NCBI GenBank assembly: GCA_965262115.1
Contig: OZ253496.1
Location: 640,001-704,000, forward strand
Source: Nitrospinales bacterium
GTDB taxonomy: Bacteria; Nitrospinota; Nitrospinia; Nitrospinales; VA-1
Reading direction: 5' to 3'
Length of the DNA: 64,000 nt
Shown piece by piece: positions 54,143 to 58,908 of this stretch. Each line of letters starts with the position of its first letter. Position 1 is the first letter of the stretch. The translations under genes were made by a program, and so were the position numbers. The notes under the pieces are model-generated. The model was not told the origin of the DNA. It saw nothing but the letters and a program-made list of their open reading frames with translations, and did no database searches.

Positions 54143-54712
54143 AGTCGGCACAGGAAAGCCTGAGTCGGCTCAAAAAAATATTGAGCAGGTCATTTTTGGA
54201 AAAAGCGAAACCATTGACCTTGCCATCATCTGCCTTCTTGCCAAAGGCTACCTGCTCATTGAAGACGTTCCCGGTGTCGGCAAAACCTCTCTGGCCCATT
54301 GTCTGGCCAACTCGCTGCAACTCGATTTCAAACGTATCTAATTCACCAACGATCTTTTACCGGCAGATATCACCGGTGTTTCCATTTACGGCCAAGAGGA
54401 CAAACGTTTCCATTTTCAAAAGGGTCCGCTGTTCGCGAATATAGTGCTGGCCGACGAAATCAATCGTTCGACACCGCGCACCCAAAGCGCTTTGCTGGGA
54501 GCGATGAACGAAAAACAGATTTCTGCCGACAACAACACCTATATCCTTGAAGAACCTTTTATGGTGATCGCAACCCAGAACCTGATAGAAAGCCAGGGTG
54601 CCTATCCCCTGCCGGAATCGCAGTTAGACCGCTTCATGTTCCATATGTCCATGGGTTATCCTTCCCCAGATGATGAACGGCGCCTGTTACAGGAACCTCG
54701 ACTCAGCCCGGC
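54139..54712 (+). pseudogene. moxR: MoxR AAA+ ATPase (frameshift, nonsense, 3' deletion)
   Basis: shifted frame EDVPGVGKT; TAA at 54339; LADEINR, PLPESQLDRF. Confidence 0.85.
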
Positions 54713-54999
54713 AAGGGATTGGGCTTCATCGTGATTTTGATTGGGGTGGGACTCGGGGCGATCAACACCGGCAACAATCTTTCATATTTGATTCTGGCCA
54801 TGTGTTGCAGTTTCATCGTCGTCTCCGGGATTTTGTCCAAAATGAGCTTGAAAAAACTCAGCGTTGAATGCGAGGCACCCGCTTATCTTTATGCACAGGA
54901 ACCCGGCTCTCTGAAGCTCCGCAATCACAAAAATTGGGAACCCTCCTATTCCATTCGCGTTAAAGCAGCTCAATCCCGTCAACTCTTCTCTCCGGAACC
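54713..54999 (+). pseudogene. DUF58-type protein, N-terminal fragment
   Basis: GAINTGNNL motif following moxR; cut off at the MITE end at 55000. Confidence 0.7.
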
Positions 55000-55019
55000 G
55001 AGAGCTTTGCATAACCCCG

Positions 55020-55097
55020 ACCCCTGCGGGGCATGAAGTTTAAGGAAATACCCGTGCCGGGCATGAAGACTAATGTTGGGGATATTACAAATATCAC
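55020..55097 (-). repeat. two nested 38-40 bp mini-elements
   Basis: inner copy 55049-55088 lies within outer copy 55020-55048 + 55089-55097. Confidence 0.65.
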
Positions 55098-55156
55098 GTC
55101 TTCGTCACGTTGTTCCTCAGAATGACAAAACAGCCTTTTATTGTCATGCTGAGCTA

Positions 55157-55194
55157 GTGATATTCGACCTTTGCCTTCTTGCCCCGTAGGGGTA
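55157..55194 (+). repeat. 38-bp mini-element inside a GTCATGCTGAGC...TCGAAGCATCT palindrome
   Basis: GTGATATTCGACCTTTGCCTTCTTGCCCCGTAGGGGTA. Confidence 0.7.
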
Positions 55195-55239
55195 TCTCGA
55201 AGCATCTCGCTTTTCTGCTTTATCGACTTACACAAAGCT

Positions 55240-56529
55240 TGATCTTCCCCTGTTTTAGTGGACAGTTAGTTAAGAGGCATAGGCCTGTTTCTCGAATTCG
55301 GCAGGGCTGAGATAGCCGAGATATTAGTGACGGCGTTGCCGATTATAAAACACTTCGATATATTCAAAAATATCCTTCTTTGCTTGCTGACGGGTTTTGT
55401 AGTTCCGGTTATGAATGAGTTCCACTTTGAGAGTATGGAAAAAACTCTCCGCCACGGCGTTATCCCAGCAATCGCCCTTCCGGCTCATACTGCACTCTAT
55501 CCCATGAACATTGAGCAAGGCTTGAAAATCGTTGCAGGCATATTGAACCCCCCGGTCAGAATGGTGAATCAATCCCGGTTTCATGCCGCCGTTCTTCATT
55601 GCCATATTTAAAGCTCTCATTACCAACCAACGGGTTATCCAACGATCCATGGCCCAACCAATAACTTTACGGTGGAATAAATCCAGCGTCACCACAAGGT
55701 ATAACCAGCCCTCTTGAGTCGGGATATAGGTGATATCCGAAACCCAGCATTGACCGGGCTCAGCAACATTAAACCGCCGTTGCAGTTTGTTTTTTGCCAC
55801 CGGGTGATTATGTTTGGAATCGGTTGTCACCCTGAACTTTCTTTTGTGCTTGGCAACGATTCCATGCTCGCGCATAAGACAGGCAATACGATGCCTGCCA
55901 ATGGCATATCCCTTGTCTTTCAAGTCCTCATGAATTCTGGGACTGCCATAAGTCTGGCGACTCTTCTTATAAACGGTTTTGATCTCATCAACCCATCGCT
56001 GCTTCTCACGGCTCCTCAGGCTCTCGGGGCGGCTCAGCCAGGCATAGAACCCACTTCGTCCCACTTCCAGAACCCGGCACATCGGGCTTACCGGAAATGC
56101 TTCTCGATGATCCCGTATAAACCGATATCTCATTGGGAACCCTTCGAGTACCCCTTCGGGGCATGAAGACAAATGAAGAGGACATCACAAAGATAACTGC
56201 CGCCTTTTTTAATATGTCCCGCTCCATACGAAGGCGAGCGTTTTCTCGCCGCAACTGCTGCAACTCATCTCCCGGCTTAAGCTGTCCTTTGCCGGGAAAC
56301 GCATTCCCCTGATCCTCCTCATACTCCTGTTTCCAGCGACCCAGAAGGGCAGAACGGATTCCCAGATCCCGGGACACCCGGGCAATGCTATCGCCTACTT
56401 CAATAACCAATCGAACCGCTTCTAACTTGAATTCTTTACTGAAACTCCTGCGTTTGGTTCCCATAAAAACACCTCCAAAAGTGTATTATCCACACTTTTC
56501 GATGTGTCCACCAATTCAGGGGAAGATCA
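55240..56529 (-). mobile_element. IS3-family element copy 2 (1290 bp), inactive-looking
   Basis: same IRs as copy 1; orfA from 56464, orfB from 56133 with premature TAA at 55324-55326; no TSD. Confidence 0.95.
56148..56188 (-). repeat. 41-bp mini-element in the IS3 orfA/orfB junction; empty IS110 target
   Basis: removing it restores KKAAVIFSKGSQ* with an ATGA overlap to orfB. Confidence 0.85.
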
Positions 56530-56625
56530 GGGATTAGGGGAGGGTTGGATTATGAATTCCGTAAAAATAATCCACACCCCTCCGCGGCTACGCCTTGCCT
56601 CCCCTCATGAGAGGGGAGGATCAAT
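56530..56625 (-). repeat. inverted copy of 16517-16594 (CCCCTC-type palindromes)
   Basis: near-identical reverse complement with a small hairpin insertion. Confidence 0.85.
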
Positions 56626-56965
56626 TCATGCCCCGCCAGGCTACCCCAATGCCTATACAGAAATCGTTTTAAGGACCCACCTTCCCGATTCCGGTACGAA
56701 GGGGAAAAATGTGAGCAGTCGCAATCACATCATCGTTTTATCAACAGATATCGTGATTGCCTTGCCCGGCGGATTTGGCACCCGCTCCGAAATTGAACTG
56801 GCGCTGGAATATGAAAAACGATTCATCCTGTTCAGTCCCAGCGGGGAATGGAAAGAGTTTGAACGACGGGCCGAAACAGCAACCACCCTGCAAGGGGTTT
56901 TGCAAAAGTTAATGCAAGCATTAGTTAATTATGGGTTTTCAGGTTCTGGGAAGAGTAAAAGCTAA
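56626..56965 (+). pseudogene. C-terminal fragment of a LOG/Rossmann-fold family protein
   Basis: GYPNAY, SRNHIIVLSTDIVIALPGGFGTRSEI; N-terminus missing. Confidence 0.7.
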
Positions 56966-56994
56966 GTTGGCTAAGGAGGGAAAGAGGCAGGAAT

Positions 56995-57171
56995 TCAGGC
57001 CGCTAACGACGAAAAATGATCTTTCCGAACAGAGTCGTTGAGATCATTACTGAATTCCTTCTTGGCCCTCTCTCGATCATAGGCTTTTTTGTTATCCTGC
57101 CTTTTCACATGATAACGTTTGCTTTGCAGTTGTTTCACCACAAAGTCGACTGGCTTCTTTATGATCTTCAT
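56995..57171 (-). CDS. 58-aa basic protein, candidate ArfA-like ribosome rescue factor
   Basis: AAGGAGGT RBS, near-consensus promoter; MKIIKKPVDFVVKQLQSKRYHVKRQDNKKAYDRERAKKEFSNDLNDSVRKDHFSSLAA. Confidence 0.75.
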   Translation of the reverse strand: MKIIKKPVDFVVKQLQSKRYHVKRQDNKKAYDRERAKKEFSNDLNDSVRKDHFSSLAA

Positions 57172-57213
57172 AAAGCACCTCCTTCTGGATTAATAAAATA
57201 AGGTTAAGTGTTG

Positions 57214-57242
57214 AGTATAAATCTGGAGAATTAGTTTGTCAA
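57214..57242 (-). promoter_or_regulatory. sigma70 promoter of the 58-aa gene
   Basis: TTGACA-17-TATACT. Confidence 0.85.
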
Positions 57243-57266: not shown

Positions 57267-57575
57267 TTATTCCAGACGATCTTTGAGCCGGACCAACATA
57301 TCCATGCGTTCATGAAGAATGGCAAATATGATTGGCTTCTCCCCTTCTCGAATCAGGTAAAAAACGAAATGATGTTCACAGCGAACCACACATGCGTCTG
57401 GAAATTTTTCTAAAAAGGTCCGGAGAACAACTTTTTTCTTCGCAATATTTTTGCAACATTGGCTGATTTTCCCCAAATAGATTCTGGCCTGAGCATCACC
57501 CCATTGTTCAATTGTGTGTCGGGCGATTTCCTCCAGGTCGGCTTCTGCGTCACGGGTTAATTCATAAACCCGCAT
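57267..57575 (-). CDS. ParE/RelE-family toxin
   Basis: YELTRDAEADLEEIARHTIEQWG, HFVFY, ILHERMD; TAATG coupling. Confidence 0.9.
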   Translation of the reverse strand: MRVYELTRDAEADLEEIARHTIEQWGDAQARIYLGKISQCCKNIAKKKVVLRTFLEKFPDACVVRCEHHFVFYLIREGEKPIIFAILHERMDMLVRLKDRLE

Positions 57576-57838
57576 TATTTTTGATCCTGCCAAACATCCT
57601 CAAAAATCTGTTCAACCGACCGGGGCGAAAACTCTCCTCTCCTTGCGGACTCAATACGCGGCTCCAGAAAATCTTCCAGTTTACGGAGGGCTGCATCCTC
57701 AGGCATGGAACCCATATCTGGGAACGGTGGCAAGACACGTCCGAGAACGTAATCTTTGATGGTTTTGCCTTGGAGCGCGGCAACGGCTTTCAACCGTTTA
57801 TGTTGCTCCGGGGTTACTTCAATGGATAGACGGCCCAT
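57575..57838 (-). CDS. cognate antitoxin (RHH-like)
   Basis: RLSIEVTPEQHKRLKAVAALQGKTIKDYV. Confidence 0.85.
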   Translation of the reverse strand: MGRLSIEVTPEQHKRLKAVAALQGKTIKDYVLGRVLPPFPDMGSMPEDAALRKLEDFLEPRIESARRGEFSPRSVEQIFEDVWQDQK

Positions 57839-58047
57839 TTATTTTTCTCCTGATTCATAACCATTCCTTACCCACACTAGCATATTTCACCACAAATACG
57901 AAGAATGAACATTTACACACACCTGGGAAAATGCAATTATCGTATAGGCTGGCTTCCTTTTATGCTTTGCAGGCCCACCAAGAAAATAAATGGCCAATCT
58001 TTTCCACCCCACCTGAAAATAAAGTTCACAAAAAAAGGAGAAAAAAC

Positions 58048-58908
58048 ATGACAACAGTAATTGCAACAATCAACCTTAAAGGTGGGGTGGGGAAATCAAC
58101 TGCTACGGTTGCTATCGGCGAGCTTCTTTCAGAGGCCTTCCACAAGCGCGTCCTTATTATTGATCTAGACCCGCAAACAAATGCAACCATAATGCTGATT
58201 GGAGAAGAAAAGTGGGGTGAACTCAATAATAAGAAACACACTCTTGCAACTTTGTTTGAGGATGCTCTGAAAGAAACTCAAAATTTTGACTTAGACCAGA
58301 CTCTACAAAAGAGGGTCTCAGCCGTGCATGATGTCTGGACACTTGACCTCATTCCATCAAGTCTTGACCTTATCGATGTACAGGACAATTTAGCCTCAAT
58401 GCCAAGCGGTCGATTCCATGCTAATAGTCCTATCGAAATTTTGAACAGAGCAATTAAGCCAATCATTGAAGACTATGATTACGTCCTCATTGATTGCCCT
58501 CCAAACCTGGGGTTGATTACCCTGAATGGCCTTCGAATATCTAATGGCTACATCATACCTACTATTCCTGACGTATTGTCCACCTATGGTATTCCCCAAA
58601 TAATCAAGCGAGTCAGTGAATTTGCTAAGAGTATTGGGGAATCCATTGATCCTTACGGGATCGTAATCTCTAAATTCCAAGCAAATTCATCTATTCACCA
58701 ACGAATAAGAAAGCAACTTCGCACAAACGCCGAGAAAGACTCAACAAAACACCCTATGGTTTTTAAAAACCGAATCCCTCAGGCCGATGCTATAGCCGCC
58801 GCCGCAGAGTATAACCCGACAAGCACCTTGAGGCAGAAGTATAGCTACCAAGGACGCTATGATATTTTTTGTTTCCTTGCTAAGGAGATCATGGAGGTAG
58901 CGGACTAA
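58048..58908 (+). CDS. ParA/Soj-family ATPase (orphan)
   Basis: NLKGGVGKST, IDLDPQTNAT, IDCPPNLG; AGGAG RBS. Confidence 0.92.
   Translation: MTTVIATINLKGGVGKSTATVAIGELLSEAFHKRVLIIDLDPQTNATIMLIGEEKWGELNNKKHTLATLFEDALKETQNFDLDQTLQKRVSAVHDVWTLDLIPSSLDLIDVQDNLASMPSGRFHANSPIEILNRAIKPIIEDYDYVLIDCPPNLGLITLNGLRISNGYIIPTIPDVLSTYGIPQIIKRVSEFAKSIGESIDPYGIVISKFQANSSIHQRIRKQLRTNAEKDSTKHPMVFKNRIPQADAIAAAAEYNPTSTLRQKYSYQGRYDIFCFLAKEIMEVAD

Follow-up and report, generated by a model that had tools for sequence, protein, structure and literature searches.

To our knowledge, the back-up ribosome-rescue factors ArfA, ArfB, ArfT and BrfA have to date come to light one by one, and through genetics only. The systems closest to the locus studied here are arfA and brfA, which the accessible parts of PMC8012679 and PMC6881298 present as genes for small factors that recruit a release factor (RF) and whose level is tied inversely to trans-translation. 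According to the same parts, these are the sole genes known to combine a small basic protein lacking the GGQ motif, a stem-loop in the coding region and a destabilising C terminus, and further, as yet unidentified, small RF-recruiting factors are to be expected; the accessible text of PMC8012679 places additional rescue factors beyond the reach of sequence searches. Marine nitrite oxidisers (Nitrospinae) are listed with trans-translation only in the part of PMC11633108 that was available. We analysed a small gene in the window, by which we mean the whole 64,000-nucleotide stretch of Nitrospinales DNA under study. Its design would match the logic of arfA and brfA, and our best reading, to which we give a probability of roughly 40%, is that it encodes a functional analogue, not a homologue, of ArfA and BrfA, gated by trans-translation and proteolysis.

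A small gene restricted to Nitrospinota

The gene lies on the minus strand and consists of 58 codons (57171..56995) with a TGA stop at 56997..56995; its product reads MKIIKKPVDF...HFSSLAA. The coding sequence at 56995..57171 is supported by its relatives and by its presence as a single copy in its own genome, a single contig of 2.68 Mb that is 93.9% complete by marker genes. It is monocistronic, with its own predicted sigma-70-type promoter at 57214..57242 on the same strand (TTGACA at 57242..57237, a 17-nt spacer and TATACT at 57219..57214), which scored 11/12 in a promoter scan. A Shine–Dalgarno sequence, AAGGAGGT, stands at 57177..57184 (minus strand), 5 nt ahead of the ATG. Among the inspected loci of the window's own subfamily, which we call type A, TTGACA was found at most 100 nt upstream of the gene in 12 of 16, and most have an AGGAGG-like sequence at the position equivalent to AAGGAGGT. 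A 61-aa hydrophobic ORF runs antisense to the gene at 57016-57201 (plus strand), as is expected of the complement of codons rich in Lys, Glu and Arg.

A word-indexed search returned 51 relatives of the 58-aa protein, 43-73 aa long, all from metagenomes or from metagenome-assembled genomes of Nitrospina or Nitrospinota, and an exhaustive phmmer search returned ten representatives at E<=0.001. We aligned 36 of the 51 with the window protein (A1) and built a profile of 33 sequences that includes remote members (A2), and we recovered the DNA of 19 loci in species-representative genomes and of 28 metagenome loci. Of 120 Nitrospinota genomes searched with the A2 profile, 39 carry the family. The share is 26 of 57 when only genomes with a completeness of 90% or more are counted, and within the window's genus the family occurs in 6 of the 22 remaining genomes. 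Given the origins of the relatives and these genome counts, the family is restricted to the phylum Nitrospinota and is patchy within it. A search for longer relatives found no fused forms of the domain described below, and none of the papers listed by our search of the literature on Nitrospina and ribosome rescue describes the small gene.

Codons 1-41 (57049..57171, minus strand) encode a conserved basic domain, delimited with alignments A1 and A2, that has a pI of 10.3 and 14 Lys and Arg residues. Its invariant core, LQSKRYHxK..(7)..Y.R, is common to A1 and A2; within A1, residues 14-21, 23, 25-31 and 33 (QLQSKRYH.K.QDNKKAY.R) do not vary. In a crude Nei–Gojobori-type count summed over all pairs, which are not independent of one another, codons 2-37 gave a pN/pS of 0.13 with a pS of 0.67 over all 31 distinct coding sequences, and the N-terminal part of the 60-aa class (n=16) gave 0.09 with a pS of 0.64. 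Residues 1-41 are therefore under strong purifying selection, with a pN/pS of about 0.1. AlphaFold2 run on A2 yielded a simple, uncertain model (mean pLDDT 71.7, pTM 0.28) that predicts a helix at residues 9-19, a coil at 20-32 over the invariant core and a second helix at 33-57. A sequence-only reading of the window had proposed the 58-aa ORF together with its promoter, its ribosome-binding site and two stems, all of which are in place on the minus strand; the 51 relatives and the selection on the N terminus establish that the gene is real, and the conservation for which the first ~40 residues were to be checked, at a pN/pS of ~0.1, covers residues ~1-41.

In its relatives, the small gene sits between two convergent gene groups, with genes for an FtsX/MacB-type permease and a LolA-like protein upstream and, downstream, an optional SLOG gene followed by DUF58, MoxR-type AAA and UDG-family genes. 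The next gene is convergent in the window and in the 15 closest genome loci, and in the window this downstream gene ends 29 nt from the small gene. The neighbourhoods of the type A loci, and of the loci of type C, a remote subfamily considered below, contain no translation-related genes and gave no clue to function. In the window, a parD–parE toxin–antitoxin pair (57267-57838, minus strand) and a gene for a ParA-like ATPase (57931-58908, plus strand) separate the small gene from its usual upstream neighbour; in loci L002-L016 they are absent from that place. The parDE pair, the ParA-like gene and an IS3 element are local insertions in the window, and because the gene of the relatives holds a fixed chromosomal place without parDE or IS3, the small gene is not mobile cargo.

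The neighbourhood of the window also showed signs of disruption. The IS3-family element lies within 54444-56965, with orfA at 56006-56464 and orfB at 55324-56172, both on the minus strand. It is flanked by a MoxR AAA_3 fragment at 54444-54734 that covers profile positions 66-131 only and by a SLOG-family ORF at 56504-56965 whose match is confined to the central part of its profile, and the usual DUF58, MoxR and SLOG neighbours appear broken. In locus L001, which is 98% identical, a deletion in parE extends from about codon 13 to immediately before the small gene's ribosome-binding site and also takes out the TTGACA-17-TATACT promoter.

A conserved mRNA hairpin over the end of the ORF

The last third of the ORF can fold into a long, interrupted hairpin on the minus-strand message. 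In the outer stem, a 5' arm, AGGAATTCAG (57050..57059, codons K38-E-F-S41), pairs with a 3' arm, CTGAATTCCT (56989..56998), which begins on the third position of the final Ala codon, runs through the TGA and takes in 6 nt of 3' UTR. An inner stem, AATGATCT/AGATCATT, occupies 57015..57048 together with its loop (arms at 57048..57041 and 57022..57015), and the whole extended hairpin (56975..57070) additionally pairs purine-rich codons 34-37 with the C/U-rich 3' flank. The 96 nt from 57070 to 56975 have a predicted minimum free energy of -34.8 kcal/mol and a z-score of -4.06, and none of 200 dinucleotide shuffles was as stable. The stem pattern occurs once in the 2.68-Mb genome and is therefore no dispersed repeat. 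An Rfam search returned only a chance match to a snoRNA (E 0.72).

Across the family, the consensus outer stem has 11 bp, AGGAATTCAGG/CCTGAATTCCT, and is formed by codons 38-41 (AAG GAA TTC AGG) with the final Ala base, the stop and six bases of the 3' UTR. The stem of the window is one pair shorter because codon 41 is AGT (Ser41) instead of the AGG (Arg41) of nearly all relatives. To examine the pairing, we assembled a type-A set of 37 loci with 31 distinct sequences, consisting of the window, 15 genome loci (L001-L016 minus L013, which is interrupted by Ns) and 21 metagenome loci (L023-L043); L017-L019 and L044-L050 were excluded as other subtypes. In the resulting alignment (A5), 15 pairs were 92.0% paired, as against 28-51% when the partners were slid by 1-3 columns. 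Both sides had changed in three pairs (10 cells), which none of 500 shuffles equalled, the covariation score was 0.166 versus 0.117, and RNAalifold recovered a 9-pair core unaided. In locus L008, for example, a TTC to TTT change in the 5' arm is matched by a change of the stop from TGA to TAA. The 9-pair core contains 13 G.U or U.G cells versus 2 A.C cells, which argues that the pairing is selected on the mRNA strand and not on its complement. Only GCC and GCT serve as the final Ala codon, whereas all four codons encode the penultimate Ala. With its 51 relatives and a stem conserved with covariation, the small gene is more than a chance ORF.

The purine-rich codons 34-37 often extend the pairing into the C/U-rich flank, so that the stop codon lies midway in a long imperfect duplex. 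A terminator scan of the window called no canonical terminator at the hairpin, and because the stop lies within the stem, termination simply behind the hairpin would retain the stop codon. A conserved stem-loop in the 3' part of the ORF, of the kind known from ArfA- and BrfA-type genes, was found both in the window's subfamily and in the remote type C.

A spacer tail and a selected Leu-Ala-Ala end

Behind the basic domain, codons 42-55 (57007..57048, minus strand) form a tail that is near-neutral as a peptide and constrained as RNA. In the 60-aa class (n=16), the codons from 42 up to the last three have a pN/pS of 0.95 (pS 0.28, pN 0.26), with a pS of 0.28 in the tail against 0.64 in the N-terminal part; the smaller classes gave tail pN/pS values of 0.23 (55 aa, n=5), 0.39 (58 aa, n=6) and 0.47 (62 aa, n=4). 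The last three codons of the 60-aa class (n=16) have a pN/pS of 0.12 and a pS of 0.46. A tail that is neutral as peptide with a low pS points to a spacer constrained as RNA, whereas the extreme end is constrained as peptide.

In the window this apolar C-terminal end, delimited by comparison of the coding sequences, is Leu-Ala-Ala (codons 56-58, 56998..57006, minus strand). The 31 distinct coding sequences end in LAA (24), IAA (2), MAA (1), SAA (1) or AVA (3), so that 28 of them carry an Ala-Ala end, and the apolar x-Ala-Ala end is under selection. C-terminal LAA-type ends are degrons for ClpXP. Selection on LAA at the peptide level implies that the full-length product is made often enough to matter. 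The tmRNA of the host encodes the tag ANDYDVAVAA, and those of four relatives encode ANDYD(V/I)AVAA; the LAA end of the protein resembles the AVAA end of the tag without being a copy of it. Among the five genomes read, the tag and the protein end did not co-vary, since the tags are alike even in the three genomes in which the protein ends in AVA or IAA.

Remote subfamilies vary the design

Type C comprises eight loci, each in its own genome, in another Nitrospinota family, f4. Its alignment (A6) matched A1 in hhalign with a probability of 87.3% (E 3.7e-6, 42 columns). Directly after the basic domain, type C has a 23-bp hairpin (-38 to -48 kcal/mol) that is unrelated to that of type A; 99.5% of its cells are paired, four pairs have changed on both sides, and several conserved pairs are G.U. 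The position of the stop varies: it lies within the 3' arm in L109, whose product ends ...ASVA, 6 nt past the stem in L111, in a U-tract 7-9 nt past the stem in L101 and L108, and then 16 nt (L103), 32-35 nt (L107 and L102) and more than 45 nt (L110) past it. A stop that wanders in this way is the pattern expected if translation beyond the stem does not matter. Type C repeats, with an unrelated hairpin, the order of basic domain and then coding hairpin that characterizes arfA and brfA. In all eight loci (L101-L103 and L107-L111), the gene is flanked by genes for a UbiA-family prenyltransferase and an MqnC/CofH-like radical-SAM protein on the same strand, and the strong hairpin could also influence expression of the downstream gene.

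Hydrophobic tails mark type D, which is known from genus g9 and from metagenome proteins. Two of its loci, L104 and L105, have the tail nucleotides GGGGTCAAATCTTG in common, but these are translated in two different frames, to WGQIL or GVKSW. Type B, found in nine genomes of genera g4, g5, g6 and g8, has the core motif followed by an acidic tail, and no hairpin or Ala end was found in those nine genomes. Three of the four designs thus place behind the conserved basic domain a 3' region that is conserved as RNA and not as peptide, with an apolar or Ala-Ala end.

Ribosome rescue in Nitrospinota

The genome that carries the window encodes tmRNA, SmpB, ClpX and RNase III. It has exactly two ORFs with an RF-1 domain, which are RF2 and RF1, and a six-frame search of it gave no ArfA match at E<=10; the N domain of RqcH had no match either. 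In the 120 Nitrospinota genomes, ArfB was found once, and ArfA was not found above its cut-off, with two sub-threshold matches; the genomes without the small-gene family are also without ArfB. ArfB is nearly absent from the phylum, which leaves no basis for an anticorrelation with the small gene. In the part of the survey available (PMC11633108), the row for the Nitrospinae/Tectomicrobia group, with two genomes, gives smpB 2, ssrA 2, arfB 0, arfA 0 and rqcH 0.

The two sub-threshold ArfA matches both lie in genomes without the small-gene family. One, L116 (G013:C83:12696-12830, plus strand), is a 45-aa ORF with an ArfA-type RVEKPKKGRGSYNRR motif that is unique among the 120 genomes; it scored 25.3 bits against a Pfam cut-off for ArfA of 25.5 (E 1.1e-5), and its genome is one of the two out of five in genus g16 that do not have the small-gene family. 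It may be an ArfA-like ORF that has replaced the small gene, as a single example. The other, L117 (G045:C167, minus strand), scored 22.9 bits and is doubtful, because there is no ATG, GTG or TTG in frame upstream of the match.

Comparison with known protein families

The window protein had no match in Pfam or NCBIfam at E<=1, and none of the 33 family members matched ArfA (PF03889) at E<=10. Aligned by hhalign with 16 enterobacterial ArfA sequences gathered from E. coli arfA (A3, a shallow set with 80-93% identity), the A2 profile gave a probability of 0.2% (E 0.3, 12 columns), and the best local match paired KRQDNKKAYDRE with KNKKGKGSYMRK. The KGKGS motif of ArfA is absent from the family; the equivalent stretch is QDNKKAY, which is invariant in type A. 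Sequence searches of the PDB with A2, P0049 and A6 gave only chance-level matches, among them a single match of the A2 profile to uL3 (E 4.5), and no homology to BrfA was found there.

Three further families were considered and rejected. One relative, P0049, matched DUF3886, which we take to be the BrfA family, with 18.1 bits (E 0.003) against a cut-off of 25, and DUF3886 had no match in the genome of the window at E<=10. Four of the 33 members matched bS21 (PF01165), at best with an E of 0.018, and the S21 model misses the locus at E<=1; the genome has three separate canonical bS21 genes outside the window (C1:1980966-1981124, C1:2279385-2279543 and C1:1066503-1066661). DUF7230 (PF23876) was retrieved from the ESM Atlas with a cosine of 0.90, but its profile had no match in the genome at E<=10. 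We found no literature on DUF3886 or on DUF7230. KGG was not among the 18 Pfam families that the 33 members matched at E<=10. Altogether, these searches gave no support for placing the small protein in a known family.

Discussion

We favour a functional analogue of ArfA and BrfA because only arfA and brfA are known to combine the features found here; as neither ArfA nor any solved chain shows detectable homology, the function is argued from the analogy of gene design alone. Cleavage or trimming of the hairpin is an assumption within this reading. RNase III-type cutting of the duplex, or 3' trimming into it, would take off the stop codon, and ribosomes would then reach the end of the message, where a product of ~40-45 residues would be tagged by tmRNA (...AVAA) and destroyed. 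The product of an uncut mRNA would bear its own LAA end and be destroyed by ClpXP-type proteases. The untagged, truncated protein would build up only when trans-translation is overloaded; its basic segment would bind ribosomes with an empty channel, and RF1 or RF2 would be recruited. The protein has no GGQ motif and therefore cannot hydrolyse peptidyl-tRNA itself. A predicted complex of RF2 (A4) with the small protein (A1) had scores of 0.00 and 0.01, which speaks neither for nor against an interaction. Such a gene would be under a double lock, in which tmRNA tagging removes the truncated product and the encoded copy of the tag's end removes the full-length one. We tentatively suggest that it represents an independently evolved new class of RF-dependent rescue factor, confined to Nitrospinota, whose double lock reads the capacity of both trans-translation and ClpXP.

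The sequence-only reading had also cast the gene as a back-up rescue factor, and part of that case holds. All 31 distinct sequences retain the hairpin, which it had proposed to check for covariation, and show compensatory and G.U changes in it. Selection at the peptide level maintains the LAA end, present in 24 of the 31 distinct coding sequences, and tmRNA, SmpB, ClpX and RNase III are present in the genome and ArfA, ArfB and RqcH absent from it. For a relationship to ArfA by descent, the profile–profile comparison (hhalign 0.2%) and Pfam gave no support.

The most serious alternative, which we judge somewhat less probable, is that the gene encodes a small basic regulator or a nucleic-acid- or ribosome-binding protein with another function, whose level is set through LAA by ClpXP-type proteolysis, and that the hairpin is a 3' stabilizer or terminator that yields no non-stop mRNA. 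Selection on LAA fits such a plain protease-controlled protein as well as it fits an analogue of ArfA, and conservation of LAA as peptide means that the stop is reached. In the window's subfamily, that stop lies inside the hairpin with C/U-rich sequence after it, and the short mRNA is squeezed by a convergent gene ending 29 nt away. Type B, which has the core motif and an acidic tail without hairpin or Ala end, shows that the domain can exist without this kind of control. The absence of detectable homology to rescue factors also suits this alternative, and further points weigh against an ArfA/BrfA analogue: the gene is patchy and dispensable in many relatives, its neighbours have no link to translation, and no canonical terminator was detected. 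The last of these also counts against a hairpin that serves as a terminator in the window. Simple control by proteolysis also leaves unexplained why the ORF always enters a duplex of ~25-30 bp, why two unrelated hairpins stand at the same position in two subfamilies, and why the stop wanders and tail nucleotides are kept across frames.

A translation-coupled attenuator, in which the ORF is a leader and passage through the hairpin governs downstream read-through, is very improbable. It would suit type C, where the gene stands between same-strand UbiA-family and MqnC-like genes and the hairpin is terminator-like in L101 and L108. In the window and in the 15 closest genome loci, however, the next gene is convergent, so that there is nothing downstream to control, and a leader peptide would not hold a 41-residue domain at a pN/pS of ~0.1 across different gene contexts. 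We give slightly less credence still to a divergent descendant of ArfA, BrfA, ArfT/KGG or bS21. The hhalign pairing of KRQDNKKAYDRE with ArfA's KNKKGKGSYMRK, the match of P0049 to DUF3886 (E 0.003) and those of 4 of the 33 members to Ribosomal_S21 (best E 0.018) could be taken as traces of such descent, but all of these matches are below significance, with an hhalign probability of 0.2% and no Pfam or NCBIfam match at E<=1; moreover, three canonical bS21 genes are already present in the genome and KGG is unmatched among the 33 members. Least probable of all is that only the RNA hairpin is functional (as a small RNA, a bidirectional terminator or a protein-binding site) with an incidental ORF, or that the gene is cargo of parDE, parA or IS3: the hairpin is strongly conserved and ParDE, the ParA-like gene and the IS3 element do flank the gene, but the N-terminal pN/pS of 0.09-0.13 lies outside the hairpin and hence reflects selection on the protein, in the relatives the gene keeps a fixed place, flanked by the LolA-like gene and by the DUF58/MoxR/UDG group, in surroundings free of parDE and IS3, and the hairpin is single in the genome.

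The candidate was found from gene design alone, in a phylum without a known back-up to tmRNA. If the reading as an analogue of ArfA and BrfA is true, it adds a new family of rescue factors, makes the combination of basic domain, coding hairpin and degron a searchable signature, and shows an ssrA-like end, written into the gene, serving as a natural fail-safe. Should the protein not act in rescue, what remains is a small, well-defined protein whose coding region carries an unusually well supported RNA structure.

Set beside known systems, the C-terminal Leu-Ala-Ala with its free carboxylate resembles the substrates that ClpX recognizes by an LAA-type C-motif, as in ssrA tags; it differs from them in that 3 of the 31 small-gene sequences end in AVA, and degradation by ClpXP is putative here. 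ArfT of Francisella, which is grouped with KGG-repeat proteins, is likewise a basic, helical protein, of 40 aa, that recruits RF1 or RF2 according to the parts of bioRxiv 10.1101/465609 and PMC6514570 that we had; unlike the control proposed here, ArfT is reported in the accessible part of the former to be uncontrolled by mRNA truncation.

ArfA (E. coli YhdL, PF03889), as described in the accessible part of PMC8012679, shares more of the design. It is small, basic and GGQ-less, its function resides in roughly the N-terminal 40-55 residues, the 3' part of its ORF contains a stem-loop, and what is encoded past the functional part is poorly conserved; the C terminus of its full-length product is destabilising, as is putatively the case here, and its expression logic is tied to tmRNA. 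The differences are that the stop of the small gene lies within the 3' arm, whereas that of arfA is downstream of the hairpin, that the fail-safe of the small gene would be an ssrA-like LAA behind a neutral spacer where ArfA has a hydrophobic tail, and that the small protein, confined to Nitrospinota, has no sequence relationship to ArfA and no KGKGS. In the RefSeq record of E. coli K-12, an 'arfA-derived small regulatory RNA' (yrdG) is annotated over the 3' end of arfA (L051:4432-4485), so that in genes of this kind a 3' fragment carrying the hairpin can exist independently, a point to be borne in mind for the present hairpin as well. BrfA (B. subtilis YqkK) is, in the available text of PMC6881298, an RF-dependent rescue factor with an intrinsic terminator in the ORF ahead of the stop. 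The window's subfamily differs from it in having no canonical terminator; type C loci L101 and L108 resemble it, with a strong stem, a U-tract and a stop 7-9 nt past the stem.
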